A stretch of DNA of 64,000 bases. Origin: Octopus vulgaris (taxonomy: Eukaryota). The stretch is taken from positions 32,922,001 through 32,986,000 of the forward strand of contig OX597837.1 of assembly GCA_951406725.2 (NCBI GenBank), read 5' to 3'. Shown in pieces: positions 8,002 to 63,869 of the stretch. The first letter of the stretch is position 1; every line of letters begins with the position of its first letter. Both the position numbers and the translations under genes were made by a program. The notes under the pieces were generated by a model. The model was not told where the DNA came from and did not search any database. It saw only the letters and a list, made by a program, of their open reading frames with translations.

Positions 8002-8098
8002 AATTAATAACATTCTTTTATTTAAAACCACTACAATTGTTTCAATGCTTGTTTTGAAACATTTGTAGTGATTTTAAAAATAAAGAATGTCATTAATT
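8002..8098. repeat. Imperfect ~45-bp-arm inverted repeat carrying the GAAACAATTGTAGTG motif
   Basis: 8002-8045 is the reverse complement of 8054-8098 with a few mismatches. Confidence 0.75.
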
Positions 8099-15599: not shown

Positions 15600-16850
15600 C
15601 ATCATCATTGTTGACATCGTTATCATTTAACGTCTGCTTTCCATGCTGGCATGGGTTAGATGGTTTCATGAAACTGGTAAGCTGGGGAGGTGGGGGAGCT
15701 GCGTCAGGTTCCAATCTGATTGGCATGGCATCTGCACTCGGATGCCCTTCCTAACGCCAACCACTCCAAGAGTATAATGTACCTTTTACGTGCCACCAGC
15801 AGAGGGGCCACTTTCATGACAACAGCATCAGCCAAGACTACAATTTTCACTTGGCTTCATGGGTGTTCTCAAATATAATAATAATAATAATCTTTTCTAC
15901 TCTTGGCACAAGGCCCGAAATTTTGGGGGAGGGGCCAGTCAATTAGATCGACCCCAGTATGTGACTAGTACTTAATTTTTCAATCCCGAAAGGATGAACT
16001 TCGCTGTAATTTGAACTCAGAATATAGCGACACGCAAAATACTGCTAAGCATTTTGTCCAGAGTGCTAACGTTTCTGCTAGCTTGCCACTTTAACAACAA
16101 CAACAATATTAATGATAATAATAATATTAATAATAATGGTTTCAAATTTTGGCACAAGGCCAGCAATTTCAGGGGAGGGGATAAATCGATTACATTACTG
16201 GAGCCTGGTGCAGCCTTCTGGCTTCCCAGATCCCCAGTCAAACTGTCCAACACATGCTAGCATGGACAATGGACGTTAAACGATGATGATGATGATGATG
16301 ATGATCAACCCCAGTACACAACTGGTACTTATTTTATCGACTCTGAAAGGGATGGAAGGTTGACTTTACCTTTCATCATTTTGGAGTTGATAAAATAAGT
16401 ACCAGTTGAATACTGGGGGTCGATGTATTAAACTTACCTGCCCCCCACCAAAATTGCTGGCCTTGTACCAATATTTGCAACCATTATTATTGGTTAATCA
16501 TGTGCTTCCTGGCTATGAGATTTCAGGTTCAGTCCCACAGTGTGGCAACCTTGGGCCGACCAGACTCTTGTGAATGGATTTAGTAGATGGAAACTGTAAG
16601 AAACCCATTGTGTGTGTGTGTATGTGTGTGTGTGTGTTGTCCCCCCCTCTCCGTTTGACAACTGATGTTGGTGTGTTTACGTCCCCCATAACTTAGTGGT
16701 TTGGCAAAATAGACCAATAGGATAAGTACTAGGCTTGCGAAAAGGAAAAAGAAGAGTACTGGGGTTCAGTCAATTGACTAAAGATTTTTTAAGGTGGTGG
16801 CCCAGCAAGGGCATGGGGGTCAAATGGCTGGGATAAATAAAAAGGGACGA
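15600..16850. mobile_element. Cluster of nested decayed family D, C and A fragments
   Basis: D (15600-15870, -), C variant (15890-16090, -), D tail (16195-16305, +), C pieces, and A (16495-16845, +). Confidence 0.65.
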
Positions 16851-17600: not shown

Positions 17601-18449
17601 TGTGAACATGTGTATGTGCATATAAGTACTTGCTGAGTGCATGTACGAATTAAAAAACTCCTTTACTCACAAAACCCGTAAGGAGTGTTAGCCACAGGAA
17701 AGGTATCCAGCTGTAAAACAATGCTTCTAACCCATACTAGCATAAAAAAAAACAGGTGTACAACAAATGAAGGAAAAGCTCTGGTAAAGCATTTGGGTAT
17801 TTAGTTACATCCCTTTACATCAAGGTCTACTTTGCTTGATTCCTCATCCTTTTGAGGTTGATAAAATAAAGTATCCATAATAAGCTTTAGTGGCATTAAC
17901 TGGTTAATATATCGCTTCTTTGAAAATTTCTGGTCCTGTGCCAATGTTAGAAATAAATATTATTAAGTCAACCCATAGCAAAGATTATTAATAAACCAGC
18001 ACCATATAATTTTGGCAAATTGATAAACCATTCAATCTTACTCAGGAATCTTAAGTGGGCTGTATCATATTCCTGCTTTTTTTTTTTAATATCAAATACC
18101 CTCTGGGAATTAAGAGTTGCCTCTGCTTAAAAATAGCTGTAATCATATTTTATAGGGTGTTCTTGTAGTTGTTGTTGTCGAGCCCCGATTTGGCCTTGAC
18201 TGAGAACGGTTACGATCAGAAATGTTTCCAGTCATAATGTTTGCGTCTTTTGCATAGCAAAAACCCCACATCATCATCGTCATCATCATCGTCATCATTT
18301 GATGTCCGTTTTTCATGCTGGCATGGGTTGGACGGCTTGGCAGGAGCTGGGAAGCGAGAGGACTGCACCAGACTTTGTGGGCTGCTCTGGCATGGTGTTT
18401 ATGGCTGGATGACCTTCTTAAAAACTTTACATTGCAATTTTACTTATCA

Positions 18450-18672
18450 CCTATTTCTTTATTACCCACAAGGGGCTAAACACAGAGGGGACAAACAAGG
18501 ACAGACATAGGTATTAAGTCGATTACATCGACCCCAGTGCGTAACTGGTACTTAATTTATCGACCCCGAAAGGATGAAAGGCAAAGTTGACCTCGGCGGA
18601 ATTTGAACTCACAACGTAACGCAGACGAAAAACCGCTAAGCATTTCGCCCGGCTTGCTAACGTTTCTGCCAG
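18450..18672 (-). mobile_element. SINE family C
   Basis: Reverse complement of the family C consensus, including the head. Confidence 0.85.
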
Positions 18673-19159
18673 TTAGTGCTCCCCCTCTCTAATTTACTTA
18701 CAGTGATCCACTGCACAGCGCCACCAGTCGCCATGTGGCACTGGAAAACCATAAGAGAACCAGTCTCTTCAATCAGCTCGCAGGACCACCTGCCTGGTGT
18801 CCATGACTGAAGATCAGAAAACTACTCCGAAATGTTTGCCTCTCACGGTCTGGGAAAATGGTGCTGTGACCTGATATAGATCCATACACACCATTTCTCA
18901 ACAAGTGAGATATATTCTCTGCAGTGAGCGGCTTGTTTCCCAGTTTGAACATGCATTAAGCATATTTGAACTGATAATAACATCACAGTTTTAGTGCTCC
19001 CCCTCTGTACTTTACTGAATGTATTGAGTGCTTTTTATGTGGTGTTGGCACAAGGGCTTTATACATCACACCATCATGGGTATTCTTTACATGGTCCCAA
19101 CACGGATGCTTTGCATTAGTGAATGTTTTGTTCCATTTTGTATATATACACATATTATG

Positions 19160-20125: not shown

Positions 20126-20793
20126 TGTTTGGGGATATTCATGCTGTTTACAATGACAGTGGTGATGGTTGTCATCATTATTGTGATGGCGGTGGTGGTG
20201 GTGGTGGTGGTGGCAGATATCATTGTCGTCGTCATGGTGGTGGTGGTGGTGGTGGTAGTTGATGTTTTTATAGGTGGTTAATATTTTGTTTAGCTCCTTA
20301 GTAGGCCCTAATTGAGCAGAAGATCAAAAGCATTCCAGCCATGCCCACACCATTTTTTAAAAAATTTCAAACGTCGTGTACCTAGAAGTACATTATCTAA
20401 TGTATCAGAATATTTGCTTCTATTTTTTTTTGTTTTATTTGCAGGGGGTCTTTTATGAGAGATGTTTTTTGTTGGTGGTTGGGGACAGTTGTGTTGAAGT
20501 TTAGTCTTAGGCCAGCTTTGGTTCAACAGATCTTTGATCTAAAACTTTCCATCCATGACCATCCAGTCTTTTATCATTTTTCAGATGGTGGGCAGGCTTA
20601 GCTATGTGTTAAGAAACTTGCTTCCCAATCACATGGTTCCAGGTTCAGTCTCATTGTGTGATACCTTGGCAAATGTTTTCTATTATAGCTTTGGGCTAAC
20701 CAAAACCTTCAGGGTGGATTTGGCAGGCAGAAACTGAAAGAAGCCCATCGTATATATATATATATATATATATATTTTTTATTTTATAGAAGG

Positions 20794-20844
20794 AGCTTCT
20801 ACAGGACTAGAACTGTTTCATTCAGATGAAATCATCAGGAAGCT
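20794..20844 (-). ncRNA. Type I hammerhead ribozyme motif, mirror copy
   Basis: Reverse complement reads agcttc-CTGATGA-tttcatctgaat-GAAA-cagttctagtcct-GTA-gaagct. Confidence 0.7.
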
Positions 20845-20891
20845 TCCTGAAGATTTCATCTGAATGAAACAGTTCTAGTCCTGTAGAAGCT
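20841..20891 (+). ncRNA. Type I hammerhead ribozyme motif (Penelope-like element associated)
   Basis: Stem I agcttc/gaagct; core CTGAAGA 20847-20853; stem II ttc-atct-gaa; GAAA 20866-20869; stem III ACAG/CTGT; predicted GUA cleavage after 20885. Confidence 0.7.
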
Positions 20892-20973
20892 CCTTCTATA
20901 AAATAAATTACTTTACTCTGCCATGTATTGAGTACCTTATTTACTGTGGTTAACCCCGACTCAACCCGGGACC

Positions 20974-21019
<46 letters not shown>

Positions 21020-21119
21020 TAAATGAGGGTGAAAAATTTGATATTAGTTTAATAATACCATCAATTTAACACCAAGTGGCTTAGCACATAAAAACCAGGG
21101 ATACAATACAAATTTATAC

Positions 21120-21295
21120 ATAAATATGAGAGCGACCACTATGTGGTCTACTCTAGTGCTAAAAATAGATCCACTATGGTATAGCCACTAAAAAATTGTA
21201 TTTCTCCTTGGAAACAATTTTTTAGTGGCTATACCATAGTGGATCTATTTTTAGCACTAGAGTAGACCACATGGTGGTCGCTCTCTCATATTTAT
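21120..21295. repeat. Long inverted repeat (80-bp arms, 14-nt spacer) between (TA)n tracts
   Basis: 21120-21199 versus 21214-21295 are reverse complements apart from one substitution and a 2-nt indel. Confidence 0.9.
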
Positions 21296-21780
21296 ATATA
21301 TATATATATAGTTATGATATATTCTGTTAAGAACATAGTAGAGTACAGCATAAAGCTTGTCCACCTTCAGATTACATCCCGAGTTATCCCGTGGTAGTGA
21401 TATACATACTTCCAGGTTTGTGTTTGGGCATCTGTCGAGTGTGAATAGATAAATGAAAAAAATTTGGAGTCAACAAGAAGGGTTACAGTTGGACATTTAT
21501 TTTATAATCACTACAATTGTTTCCACATAACGTAGCTCTCCAGATGTGAAGGGACTTGGTTATGTAACTGTCTCTCTGCATTTTGTGATCTAATTGTGCT
21601 TCCTCAGGCGATATGTAAATATTGTCTCTGTAAGTTCAAAGTCCTCAGGTTCAAGGGCATCCTGTCTGTCTGTCTGTCATGGCCTGAATTTAGTAGTAGT
21701 CACTGACCCTATCAGTGTGTGTTGTCGCTGAAGGGCCATTGGTAAGCCTTCTTTGAATTAAGCATTCATTTTTGGTTGGT

Positions 21781-22135
21781 GGAGGCGCAATGGCCCAGTG
21801 GTTAGGGCAGCGGACTCGCGGTCATAGGATCGCGGTTTCGATTCCCAGACCGGGCGTTGTGAGTGTTTATTGAGCAAAAACACCTAAAGCTTCACGAGGC
21901 TCTGGCAGGGATGGTGGTGATCCCTGCTGTACTCTTTCACCACAACTTTCTCTCACTCTTACTTCCTGTTTCTGTTGTACTCTCTGTGTCACGCTGAATA
22001 TCCCCAAGAACTACGTTAAGGGTACACGTGTCTGTGGAGTGCTCAGTCACTTACACGTTAATTTCACGAGCAGGCTGTTCCGTTGATTCGGATCAACCGG
22101 AACCCTCATCGTCGTAACTGACAGAGTGCTTCCAT
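21781..22135 (+). mobile_element. SINE family B with a small internal deletion
   Basis: TSD catttttggttggt at 21767-21780 and 22139-22152. Confidence 0.9.
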
Positions 22136-22214
22136 CCCCATTTTTGGTTGGTTTGGGGATGTCTTTTAGTGAACAGTCAATGCAGGGAAACAGTTGCATA
22201 ATCAAGTACCTTCA

Positions 22215-22252
22215 CACCTGAAGAACTACGTTATGTGGAAACAATTGTAGTG
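22215..22252 (+). ncRNA. Minimal type I hammerhead motif with palindromic stem III
   Basis: cac-CTGAAGA-actacgttatgtg-GAAA-CAATTG-TA-gtg; stems I and II are short. Confidence 0.55.
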
Positions 22253-22854
22253 ATTAAAAAGTAAATGTCCAACAGTATCCCTTCTTGTTGACTCCAACAT
22301 TTTGTCAATTATATATGGTGTGTGTGTGTGTGTGTGTGTGTATTTGTCCACTGCAACTGTTTGATAACCAGTGTTGGTGTGTTTACATCCCTGTAGCCCA
22401 GTAGTTTTCGCAAAAGATACTGATAGAATAAGCACCATTCTTAAAAAAAGCAAAAAAGCACTTGTGGTCAATATATTCGACTAAAAATTCTTCGAGTGGT
22501 GCCCCAGCATCAAATGTGACTGAAACAAGTGAAAGATAAATGAAAAGACAGTGATGGATAAACTGCAGTTGTGGGATTTTCTAAACGGTACACCTAAATA
22601 AAAAACTACCTTGGATTTTTTTTTTTATTTTTTAGTAGTATGGCCCACCTGATGATGAGCAATGTGTCACATGTGGCCCACATCTTGAAAAAGGCTGCTC
22701 ATGTAACCTTATGTGATACATCCTTTCTTTTTTAAGACAGTAAGAATTTAAATTAAGGGAGATTTGACTGCTTTTTCTTGTAGGTCAATCACTCATCTGG
22801 AGATTCTCTTGTATGTTCAGTATTGCTGTTATTGTTGTTGTTGTTTAGCAACAC

Positions 22855-23068
22855 GGGGCTAAACATAGAGGGGACAAACAAGGACAGACAAAGGGATTAA
22901 GTCGATTACATCGACCCCAGTGCGTAACTGGTACTTAATTTATCGACTTCGAAAGGATGAAAGGCAAAGTCAACCTCGGCGGAATTTGAACTCAGAACAT
23001 AACAGCAGACGAAATACCGCTAAGCATTTTTGATCAGTGTGCTAACATTTCTGCCAGCTCGCTGCCTT
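22855..23068 (-). mobile_element. SINE family C
   Basis: Reverse complement of the consensus. Confidence 0.8.
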
Positions 23069-23744
23069 TAACTGCTATTTCTAGCTTGTAAAGATGCTGT
23101 TGTTGTCTTAACTTATTAATATCATTGTTGTTTAACCCCAGGTCAGCTCTAATCCAGCCAAACTATGATCAAAAAGCATTCCATAGCAACATGTAATCCT
23201 TTTCTTTTCTTTCTTTTTTTATTCATCTTTATTTATCTAAGATTACATTATCCAATTGAATCTTGTTTTAACAGTGCACAGTGATATCTGAGGGAGACTT
23301 GACTGCTATTTCTTGCAGTATGAGCAACCATGTGCAAGTTTAGATCAGTCATTATTATTGATGGTCGTGGTAGCGGTGGTGGTGGTATTGTCAATGTTAT
23401 TGTTGTTGTTGTTGGTGGTGGTGGTGATGGTGTTGGTTTTGTCAATGCTACTGTGATAGTAGTGGTGGCGCCAATAGTTTTGTTGATCATGGTGGTGGTA
23501 GTGGTGGTGGTGGTGGTGGTAGTGGTGGTGGTAGTGGTGGTGGTGGTGGTATTGTTCTTGATGCTCTTATTGACTCCGAGAGAGTTGGTGAGGGCAATAT
23601 TGATGGTGGCGTCAGTGGTGGTGCTACACTTGTTGTTGTTGTTGTTGTCAGTGGTGGTGGTGGTCATGATGGTAAAACTGTTGATGTTATTGTTGGTAGT
23701 AGACGTAGTGGTGGTGGTGGTGTTGATGTTATTGTCTATAGGAA

Positions 23745-50468: not shown

Positions 50469-51051
50469 AAGGCAACAAGCTGACAGAAACGTTAGCACAC
50501 TGGGCGAAATACTTAGTGGTATTTCGTCCGCCACTGCATTCTGAGTTCAAATTCCGCTGAGGTCGACTTTGCCTTTCATCCTTTCGGGGTCGATAAATTA
50601 AGCACCAGTTATGCACTGGGGTCGATATAATCGACTTAATCCGTTTGTCTGTCCTTGTTTGTCCCCTCTGTGTTTAGCCCCTTGTGGGTAGTAAAGAAAT
50701 AGGTATTTCATTTGTCTTTATGTTCTGAGTTCAAATTCCGCCAAGGTCGACTTTGCCTTTCATCCTTTCGGGGTCGATAAATTAAGTACCAGTTACGCAC
50801 TGGGGTCGATGTAATTGACTTAATACCTATGTCTATCCTTGTTTGTCCCCTCTGTGTTTAGCCCCTTGTGGGTAGTAAAGAAATAGGTATTTCATCTGTC
50901 TTTATGTTCTGAGTTCAAATTCCGCCATGGTTGACTTTGCCTTTCATCCTTTCGGGGTCAATAAATTAAGTACCGGTTGCATACTGGAGTCAATCTAATT
51001 AACTGGCCTCCCCATGAAAAATTTCGGACCTCATGCCTAGAGTAGAAAAGA
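50469..51051 (+). mobile_element. SINE family C trimer (one head, three bodies)
   Basis: Junction AAAGAAATA|GGTATTTC at ~50701 and ~50885; degenerate TSD aattatcgcctccact versus aattatcatttccact. Confidence 0.85.
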
Positions 51052-61322: not shown

Positions 61323-63548
61323 AAGGCAGCAAGCTGGCAGAAACGTTAGCACGCCGGGCGAAATGCTTAGCGGTATTTCGTCTGCGTTACGTTGAGTTCA
61401 AATTCCGCCGAGGTCCACTTTGCCTTTCATCCTTTCGGGGTCGATAAATTAAGTACCAGTTACGAACTGGGGTCGATATAATCGACTTAATACCTATGTC
61501 TGTCCTTGTTTGTCCCCTCTATGTTTAGCCCCTTCTGGGTAATAAAGAAATAGGTATTTCGTCTGCGTTACGTTGAGTTCAAATTCCGCCGAGGTCCACT
61601 TTGCCTTTCATCCTTTCGGGGTCGATAAATTAAGTACCAGTTACGAACTGGGGTCGATATAATCGACTTAATACCTATGTCTGTCCTTGTTTGTTCCCTC
61701 TATGTTTAGCCCCTTGTGGGTAATAAAGAAATAGGTATTTCGTCTGCGTTACGTTGAGTTCAAATTCCGCCGAGGTCCACTTTGCCTTTCATCCTTTCGG
61801 GGTCGATAAATTAAGTACCAGTTACGAACTGGGGTCGATATAATCGACTTAATACCTATGTCTGTCCTTGTTTGTACCCTCTGTGTTTAGCCCCTTGTGG
61901 GTAATAAAGAAATAGGTATTTCGTCTGCGTTACGTTGAGTTCAAATTCCGCCGAGGTCCACTTTGCTTTTCATCCTTTCGGGGTCGATAAATTAAGTACC
62001 AGTTACGAACTGGGGTCGATATAATCGACTTAATACCTATGTCTGTCCTTGTTTGTCCCCTCTATGTTTAGCCCCTTATGGGTAATAAAGAAATAGGTAT
62101 TTCGTCTGCGTTACGTTGAGTTCAAATTCCGCCGAGGTCCACTTTGCCTTTCATCCTTTCGGGGTCGATAAATTAAGTACCAGTTACGAACTGGGGGTCG
62201 ATATAATCGACTTAATACCTATGTCTGTCCTTGTTTGTTCCCTCTGTGTTTAGCCCTTTGTGGGTAATAAAGAAATAGGTATTTCGTCTGCGTTACGTTG
62301 AGTTCAAATTCCGCCGAGGTCCACTTTGCCTTTCATCATTTCGGGGTCAATAAATTAAGTACCAGTTACGCACTGGGATCGATGTAATCGACTTAATACC
62401 TATGTCTGTCCTTGTTTGTACCCTCTATGTTTAGCCCCTTGTGGGTAATAAAGAAATAGGTATTTCGTCTGCGTTACGTTGAGTTCAAATTCCGCCGAGG
62501 TCCACTTTGCCTTTCATCCTTTCGGGGTCAATAAATTAAGTACCAGTTACGCACTGGGATCGATGTAATCGACTTAATACCTATGTCTGTCCTTGTTTGT
62601 TCCCTCTATGTTTAGCCCCTTGTGGGTAATAAAGAAATAGGTATTTCGTCTGCGTTACGTTGAGTTCAAATTCCGCCGAGGTCCACTTTGCCTTTCATCC
62701 TTTCGGGGTCGATAAATTAAGTACCAGTTACGAACTGGGGGTCGATATAATCGACTTAATACCTATGTCTGTCCTTGTTTGTTCCCTCTGTGTTTAGCCC
62801 CTTGTGGGTAATAAAGAAATAGGTATTTCGTCTGCGTTACGTTGAGTTCAAATTCCGCCGAGGTCCACTTTGCCTTCCATCATTTCGGGGTTGATAAATT
62901 AAGTACCAGTTACGAACTGGGGGTCGATATAATCGACTTAATACCTATGTCTGTCCTTGTTTGTCCCCTTTATGTTTAGCCCCTTGTGGGTAATAAAGAA
63001 ATAGGTATTTCGTCTGCGTTACGTTGAGTTCAAATTCCGCCGAGGTCCACTTTGCCTTTCATCCTTTCGGGGTCGATAAATTAAGTACCAGTTACGCACT
63101 GGGATCGATGTAATCGACTTAATACCTATGTCTGTCCTTGTTTGTTCCCTCTGTGTTTAGCCCCTTGTGGGTAATAAAGAAATAGGTATTTCGTCTGCGT
63201 TACATTGAGTTCAAATTCCGCCGAGGTCCACTTTGCCTTCCATCATTTCGGGGTTGATAAATTAAGTACCAGTTACGAACTGGGGGTCGATATAATCGAC
63301 TTAATACCTATGTCTGTCCTTGTTTGTTCCCTCTGTGTTTAGCCCCTTGTGGGTAATAAAGAAATAGGTATTTCGTCTGCGTTACGTTGAGTTCAAATTC
63401 CGCCGAGGTCCACTTTGCCTTCCATCATTTCGGGGTTGATAAATTAAGTACCAGTTACGAACTGGGGGTCGATATAATCGACTTAATACCTATGTCTGTC
63501 CTTGTTTGTTCCCTCTGTGTTTAGCCCCTTGTGGGTAATAAAGAAATA
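61323..63548 (+). mobile_element. SINE family C concatemer: one tRNA 5' head plus 12 tandem 181-182 bp bodies
   Basis: Unit start GGTATTTCG at 61372, 61553, 61734, 61915, 62096, 62278, 62459, 62640, 62822, 63004, 63185 and 63367; 14-bp TSD gataattacagttt at 61308-61321 and 63549-63562. Confidence 0.95.
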
Positions 63549-63583
63549 GATAATTACAGTTTCTTTTTGTTTTTGTATTTCAG

Positions 63584-63831
63584 TGACAAAGAGTCGTCAG
63601 TGAGCAGACCAAGTATGTCAGCTGCTTTCAGCATGTCCAGTTCCGGCAGCATCGGCAGTGTGGTCAGCAGTAACGGGGGAGGGACAACAAGCAGCGTGGA
63701 GACTACTTCGGGAAGCGCCGTGATGGTGTGGATGATGGAACTACGGTTCTCTACGGAGATGGAATGTATGACTGTTCTACAGAGCAAGTCTATACGAAGA
63801 GGGAACGACCTGTCAGGACGGGCAGTGAAAA
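63584..63831 (+). CDS. Internal (or first coding) exon of an unidentified protein-coding gene; Ser/Gly-rich
   Basis: Pyrimidine tract and acceptor ttctttttgtttttgtatttcag (ends 63583), donor A|gtaagt (63832). The 248-nt non-repetitive, GC-richer block has only one stop-free + frame: DKESSVSRPSMSAAFSMSSSGSIGSVVSSNGGGTTSSVETTSGSAVMVWMMELRFSTEMECMTVLQSKSIRRGNDLSGRAVK. No family recognised. Confidence 0.7.
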
Positions 63832-63869
63832 GTAAGTTGTTTGTTTGGATTTGTTTTATTGTTTTTTAA

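Follow-up and report, generated by a model that had tools for sequence, protein, structure and literature searches.

The window analysed here is a 64,000-nt stretch of Octopus vulgaris DNA. At positions 20776–20976 it contains a unit of 201 bp, in which a hammerhead motif plus 85 bases is followed head to head by an inverted, shorter version of this sequence. A preliminary description of the locus had reported a 130-bp inverted repeat without a spacer (20778–20907), centred between AAG and CTT, with the only difference between the arms at the variable N7 position of the hammerhead core. Both observations held. The 65-bp arms, 20778–20842 and 20843–20907, are reverse complements with a spacer of 0 and one mismatch in 65 pairs. 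The mismatched pair, 20834/20851, corresponds to N7, the core reading CUGAUGA on the minus strand and CUGAAGA on the plus strand.

The long arm (20841–20976, plus strand) runs from the first base of helix I to the end of the tail and was assigned as the putative 3' end of a Penelope-like element (PLE), based on a hammerhead descriptor, the contigs of the repeat family and an architecture compared with that of published PLEs. The short inverted arm (20778–20844, minus strand), delimited by inverted-repeat and descriptor scans, represents the same 3' end minus the tail and ends with AATAAA beside (TA)n. On the plus strand this AATAAA (20902–20907) lies in the AT-rich stretch 3' of helix I and marks the short end, any role being putative; the 12-mer containing it is also present 3' of the hammerhead of a neighbouring element, at 21495–21506. 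The one-sided tail (20908–20976, plus strand) is 69 bp long and was defined from its sequence and folding, the coverage by family contigs and the concept of the PLE tail; its last part forms a short stem (20955–20970) whose loop is AC-rich. As proposed before, the unit is bordered by (TA)n on both sides, the tracts found in the repeat scan extending over 20751–20775 and 20977–21016, and since the flanks consist of (TA)n, no target-site duplication could be read. The earlier statement that the unit has no ORF was also correct: stop-free frames of at least 30 codons comprised only 31–64 codons and mostly ran through (TA)n.

The left (TA)n tract originally formed the middle of an older, SINE-like interspersed host repeat, whose halves (20590–20775 and 22310–22549) are here separated by 1.5 kb. 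In 8 of the 14 other matches to the left half, the two halves were found within 12 bases of each other. The host repeat is split by three nested inserts and its central (TA)n was their landing site. Besides the 201-bp unit, these are the elements at 21017–21307 and 21312–22316, which together with 8021–8078 constitute three further hammerhead-centred fold-backs in the window. The 21312–22316 element is likewise PLE-like and sits in this (TA)n tract. It possesses 138-bp inverted arms (21445–21582 and 22179–22316, 88% identity), a type I hammerhead at about 22214–22252 on the plus strand and, on the minus arm, a decayed hammerhead, both reading outward, and a one-sided extension of 133 bp. A SINE-like repeat (21779–22138) with a 14-bp target duplication was inserted in its middle. 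The 21017–21307 element is a palindrome with 94-bp arms and a 14-bp loop, extended on one side by about 90 bp and bordered by (TA)n at both ends; the sequence at its centre is similar to a hammerhead 3' half. The fold-back at 8021–8078 is centred in helix II, and its arms begin with a hammerhead 3' half like that of the 21312–22316 element. The alignment of the neighbouring arms gave 39% column identity, which indicates a shared layout and not one family.

Elsewhere in the window, an exon at 63525–63866 (plus strand) matched the LGN-binding domain of Inscuteable (PF16748, E = 1.5e-08), which marks the window as animal DNA. A 181–184-bp unit was found in tandem at 61372–63549 (12 copies) and 50539–51004 (2.5 copies) and also dispersed singly, for example at 18449–18672 and 22845–23071. 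One copy of this 181-bp dispersed repeat contains an inverted repeat (16319–16408) whose arms and loop each measure 30 bp. A minus-strand frame at 1810–2169, reminiscent of an RTE-type LINE fragment, gave no Pfam match.

The type I hammerhead descriptor, run on both strands of the 64-kb window, returned two matches, which were exactly the pair in the palindrome. In 300 order-3 Markov windows used as a chance control, one match was obtained in total. The presence of two hammerhead layouts at 20778–20907 exceeds chance, and the earlier claim of a complete type I layout on each strand was upheld. The plus-strand motif (20841–20891, N7 = A) was predicted from the descriptor, from folding and from family variation at N7 and loop II, and the minus-strand motif (20794–20844, N7 = U) from the descriptor and folding. 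Cleavage is predicted after A20885 on the plus strand and at the mirror position, 20800, on the minus strand. In the plus-strand motif, helix I is formed by 20841–46/20886–91, the core occupies 20847–53 and helix II consists of 20855–57/20862–64, with a tetraloop, stacked on a U·U pair (20854/20865). The GAAA at 20866–69 is followed by a helix III of 4 bp (20869–72/20881–84) with an 8-nt loop. Helix II thus has just 3 bp plus U·U, and this U·U, absent from the preliminary description, replaces the usual 10.1–11.1 pair. The predicted motifs have the layout of type I hammerheads, as the core is conserved and helix I closes the three-helix arrangement. At the head-to-head junction (20840–20845), recognised in the descriptor scan and an overlap test, the helix I 5' strands of both hammerheads overlap across the palindrome centre by the self-complementary AGCT.

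A search with type I models had been proposed as a check and gave a divided answer, with the descriptor matching both strands and no hammerhead family found among the 71, 3 and 0 matches of three Rfam searches. The Rfam matches were generic miRNA hairpins only, below gathering scores. The hammerhead call rests on the descriptor and on the family variation described below.

Parts of the unit were present in 21 of the 24 sequencing runs listed, which represent 11 studies and 7 organism labels. Family figures were derived from short contigs of four runs (X1, X2, X7 and X13). The 201 bases were matched by 1736 contigs in X1, 5759 in X2 and 9955 in X7, three runs from three studies with three organism labels; these totals are a sign of a high-copy family and not a copy count. 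The unit is a member of a repeat family that is abundant in sequencing runs of animal DNA. Exact-pattern scans of metagenome contigs, prokaryote genomes and viral contigs gave 0 loci, as expected for an animal repeat. The tail (20908–20976) was covered by family contigs, and the short-arm end joined to (TA)n recurred in 21 contigs of X1 and 23 contigs of X2. Run X13 provided one contig with a single difference from the unit, a perfect 82+82 palindrome. It was excluded as independent support, as it may stem from the window's own source, and although X13 could be an RNA run, this one contig is no sign of transcription.

Variants above 10% were observed at 5 of 5 positions of N7 and loop II and at 2 of the 46 remaining hammerhead positions, one of these two preserving a G·U pair. 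No variant of loop III was found among those listed, and A6 varied at 6% in X7. Variation sparing the core and stems is the pattern of a conserved ribozyme, as judged from related copies, which represent few independent events. Both N7 letters were common, with U accounting for 0.59, 0.47 and 0.40 in the three runs, and across the family each N7 letter was linked to different loop II letters. The mismatch between the arms, which the preliminary description allowed to be chance, thus makes use of a family allele at a truly polymorphic position, though it may also be due to a single later mutation.

The preliminary description had proposed a unit able to cleave itself whichever strand is transcribed, with the ribozyme fold competing with a 65-bp hairpin. 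Neither part was supported by folding. When the whole unit was folded, the ribozyme fold was 71–73 kcal/mol above the ensemble in either direction. In both directions the antisense of the ribozyme emerges first, and 15 pairs of the hairpin are already in place by 20860, ahead of the transcription of the cut site. Cleavage of either strand is unsupported because the antisense precedes the ribozyme and the hairpin is favoured, and the size of the fold gap leaves little of the suggested competition. For the isolated half, the active fold was predicted 4.2–4.5 kcal/mol above the ensemble by a model blind to core contacts. According to these predictions, the ribozyme could fold only in RNA starting near the palindrome centre, and in the present copy it is probably silenced by the 65-bp hairpin in read-through RNA, which would make the double ribozyme a by-product. 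The proposed use of the hairpin by ADAR or Dicer would hold for any long hairpin.

Whether the palindrome recurs in other copies had been posed as a question, and it was answered in two parts: inverted junctions recur, and the breakpoint is not constant. The depth at the centre relative to that at N7 was 0.02 in X1, 0.37 in X2 and 0.03 in X7, a dip which may be deepened by hairpin loss in libraries or graphs. The details that follow refer to the listed subset, i.e., 25 of 17583 records, 15 of 72 joints and 19 of 271 loose ends. By coordinates, 6 of the 25 listed records spanned the centre, two of them being borderline and one coming from X13. The centre-crossing records from X2 and X7 carried 3–5 gap letters and 6–26 other letters. 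All listed joints connected left-arm to right-arm or tail sequence with differing breakpoints; 6 of the 15 were symmetric within 5 bases, several lay in helix II and one was situated between both GAAGCT copies of helix I. The 'wrong' N7 letter was equally frequent on both arms (6.3 vs. 6.0% in X2 and 0.5 vs. 0.5% in X7), which would most simply reflect symmetric A/A and U/U palindromes. Loose ends were found at 20841/20844, the 5' edge of helix I, where copies extended upstream into other sequence without a palindrome, and two upstream consensus ends, from X2 and X7, were alike by eye. Judging from these contigs, the ends recur and the centre mostly varies, the centre seen in the window being a minority form. 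Fold-back at insertion and later deletion within a longer palindrome may both be expected to give identical joints. In X7, 369 contigs matching 20841–20924 left the reference right after one reversed hammerhead, some of them entering a diverged tail, and the main form in that organism may be a single hammerhead core enclosed by inverted copies of the sequence flanking it on the 3' side.

These data bear on the earlier idea of a fixed, palindromic non-autonomous element, copied whole and carrying one ribozyme for each direction of transcription. Such an element would account for the two N7 letters being about equally common in three runs, as if each came from one arm, for the recurrence of the short end beside (TA)n, and for the records spanning the centre together with the substantial centre depth in X2. 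Against it stand the centre depth of 2–3% in X1 and X7, a fall in X2 that fits the edge of homology at helix I, the gap letters in the crossing records and the variable joints. Moreover, each N7 letter is associated with its own loop II letters across the family, and the same loop II is present in both arms of the unit, which was therefore not copied from a master with two haplotypes. The strongly favoured hairpin, with 15 pairs formed before the cut site is made, also speaks against two working ribozymes. A fixed palindromic element is therefore considered unlikely.

An artefact at the locus, either a walk-back in the assembly graph or a snap-back chimera in the library, would be suggested by the perfect 82+82 palindrome of X13, which has the shape of a graph walk-back. 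The arms in the window differ by one base and also in length, unlike a walk-back, and diverged copies in X2 and X7 span the centre as well. In addition, three neighbouring elements display the same architecture with arm divergence of 10–12% or similar. These observations make an artefact very improbable. Even less credence was given to a MITE of the Tc1/mariner type with terminal inverted repeats and a TA site. The unit is palindromic, short and flanked by TA, as a MITE would be, but its inverted repeat is not terminal, one end being followed by a further 69 bp, the centres vary between copies and the variation in the family tracks hammerhead structure.

The features of the unit point to an endonuclease-bearing (EN+) PLE. 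The unit is probably a stump-sized insertion of such an element, composed of a 5'-truncated 3' end and an inverted shorter copy, placed in (TA)n and most like the Hydra clade. The PLE link and the (TA)n target proposed in the preliminary description were supported by features known from published PLEs, namely the one-sided tail, the inverted arm, insertion in (TA)n and the U·U pair. EN+ PLEs are recognised by an inverted 5'-truncated copy at the 5' end together with a one-sided tail, and by an inversion junction that varies between copies; the unit has the former, and the latter was seen among the 15 of 72 joints listed. The (TA)n target agrees with the Hydra clade but is common to Naiads and so not specific. 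No reverse transcriptase or GIY-YIG domain was detected in the 20 window ORFs scanned or in 20590–22550, and because no parent ORF was found, assignment to a clade is tentative. The short motifs of the unit and its neighbours gave no match to the Hydra and Naiad consensi in the available part of the published supplement (PMC8557442). Two weak similarities were rejected. Positions 20924–20935 of the tail agreed with the 3' end of Hydra-2_Amil at 11 of 12 bases, a match which visual inspection did not reveal in any of the five remaining novel consensi, and matches of this 11/12 type were near chance in the window (4 vs. 1.9 expected). The other, at 19008–19043, had no hammerhead upstream by eye.

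Another alternative to a PLE insertion is a non-LTR retrozyme, a short non-coding hammerhead repeat spread as circular RNA, probably by PLE proteins, and folded back on insertion. The unit resembles retrozymes in being small, low in GC and devoid of an ORF, in the 6 bp of its helix I and in the U·U pair, which is also present in HHR_Amex2 (PMC7229834), and its loop III, without a listed variant, could dimerise via CUAG (−12.8 kcal/mol). Retrozymes are described as head-to-tail tandems of 170–400 bp, and the window holds a single unit; among the 15 of 72 joints listed, 0 were tandem joints. The inverted arm and one-sided tail are PLE features, and a retrozyme origin seems improbable, slightly more so than a fixed palindromic element.

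For a PLE insertion, the following course can be proposed. The element protein would nick the AT-rich (TA)n on both strands and reverse transcription would begin at one of two starts at the RNA 3' end, giving a tailed and a tailless arm; both steps are modelled on published PLE work. Copying would end where helix I begins on its 5' side, so that the cDNA terminates in the self-complementary AGCT. The ribozyme would belong to the RNA of the parent element. The two arms could have been united by annealing of two cDNAs via AGCT (twin priming) or by one cDNA copied back on itself; we gave these routes equal weight, each a little short of even, and left a small share to others. Twin priming fits because the 4-base AGCT overlap recreates the AAGCTT junction: when two ends at the helix I edge were overlapped, 4 bases reproduced the junction of the window, and 0 and 2 did not.

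The N7 mismatch could record two templates. Both window arms share a loop II which is the minority form in X1 and X2, and this argues for a single template or a single active subfamily. At 20922 the window copy deviates from the majority of the family, and roughly one later mutation can therefore be expected; the prior for such a mutation landing on N7 is 1/65, and on N7 or any loop II or loop III position 13/65. The most specific version of twin priming, in which two separate RNAs started at the 5' edge of helix I, from a promoter or a splice acceptor, and their cDNAs annealed through AGCT and left the N7 mismatch as the trace of two templates, is put forward as a tentative possibility and judged doubtful. 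Two upstream consensus ends contain a TATA-like word about 25–30 bases 5' of helix I, and the five readable upstream ends show a pyrimidine before AG, like a splice acceptor. In Penelope of Drosophila virilis, an intron ends at helix I. The TATA-like word and the acceptor-like pyrimidine-AG are leads only as to the cause of the copying stop. Should priming from two RNAs be true, N7 and loop II would be natural barcodes, and thousands of copies per genome could decide how PLEs form inverted ends.

The palindrome is most likely an ordinary product of PLE insertion, and it does not indicate a self-cleaving RNA that works in both senses. Hammerhead pairs on opposite strands of PLE remnants have been published before (PMC4209133, PMC8557442), and the formation of head-to-head PLE ends has been addressed by a proposal of self-priming (PMC3846280) and by two-strand, two-start priming shown in vitro (PMC11167929). 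No account of zero-spacer double-hammerhead palindromes or of PLE twin priming was found in the literature searched; Repbase and Dfam lay outside this search and may already catalogue the family. What a high-copy family with exact junctions and linked free positions offers is a means of telling one template from two, and the unit points to a PLE family without a parent among the consensi searched. For Octopus vulgaris, recently active Penelope-like families have been reported, in main-text passages that do not mention hammerheads (PMC13282606).

Among PLE hammerheads, those of the Hydra clade appear closest by analogy. In the published tables for this clade, (TA)n is preferred by 26 of 27 families, and in the motif rows U·U lies under helix II in 14 of 26, ACAG/CTGT forms helix III in 4 of 26, loop III has 1–3 nt in all 26 and none combines U·U with ACAG/CTGT; Penelope-13_HM carries an inverted 5'-truncated copy and has the motif on both strands (PMC8557442). 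The unit shares with the clade the (TA)n target, a type I hammerhead about 30–100 bases from the 3' end, N7 as U or A, U·U under a 3–4-bp helix II, the tetraloop and a 4-bp helix III, which here is ACAG/CTGT as in the four rows mentioned. In this comparison the U·U pair agrees with the clade, as do the shortness of helix II and the 4 bp of helix III, and the 8-nt loop III does not. The unit also differs in having no visible ORF and arms of only 65 + 134 bp, its 69-bp tail is longer than the usual 30–40 bp, and the octopus Hydra motif in the published table differs from that of the unit (PMC8557442).

The unit resembles minimal PLE hammerheads in the type I layout and the AU-rich 3' side. Opposite-strand pairs 100–700 bp apart have been noted among them, and the two motifs here overlap, at a distance of zero (PMC4209133). 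Relative to the minimal consensus as presented there, the unit shows no extra base after position 9, no G10.1–C11.1 pair and a helix III that is not of the minimal palindromic kind, and U·U was seen by eye in 0 of the 44 minimal-motif rows (PMC4209133). The axolotl retrozyme HHR_Amex2, which self-cleaves, does have U·U under helix II; like such non-LTR retrozymes the unit is small and non-coding with a type I hammerhead, and it differs from them as a single unit in the window with no head-to-tail tandem (PMC7229834).

In architecture, a close parallel is provided by Penelope insertions with inverted pLTRs, in which a 5'-truncated copy lies in inverse orientation, the tail is confined to one side and the junction is palindromic (PMC3846280). 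The unit displays the same head-to-head copy, one-sided tail and junction palindrome. The inserts described there contain ORFs or host genes, junction palindromes of 18–38 bp and target-site duplications of 8–10 bp, whereas the entire insert in the window is little beyond the palindrome (PMC3846280). A biochemical parallel is PAc, the Poseidon element of the green anole, which as a purified protein prefers AT-rich DNA and cuts and extends both strands (PMC11167929). Two reverse transcription start sites define its tail, with an AC-rich stem-loop at the start site, and its ribozyme requires the protein and is dispensable for insertion in vitro (PMC11167929). The PAc ORF starts inside the hammerhead, whereas the ATG in helix II of the unit is stopped after four codons. 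The unit shares with PAc the AT-rich target and a similar small AC-rich stem-loop, which here ends the tail (PMC11167929).
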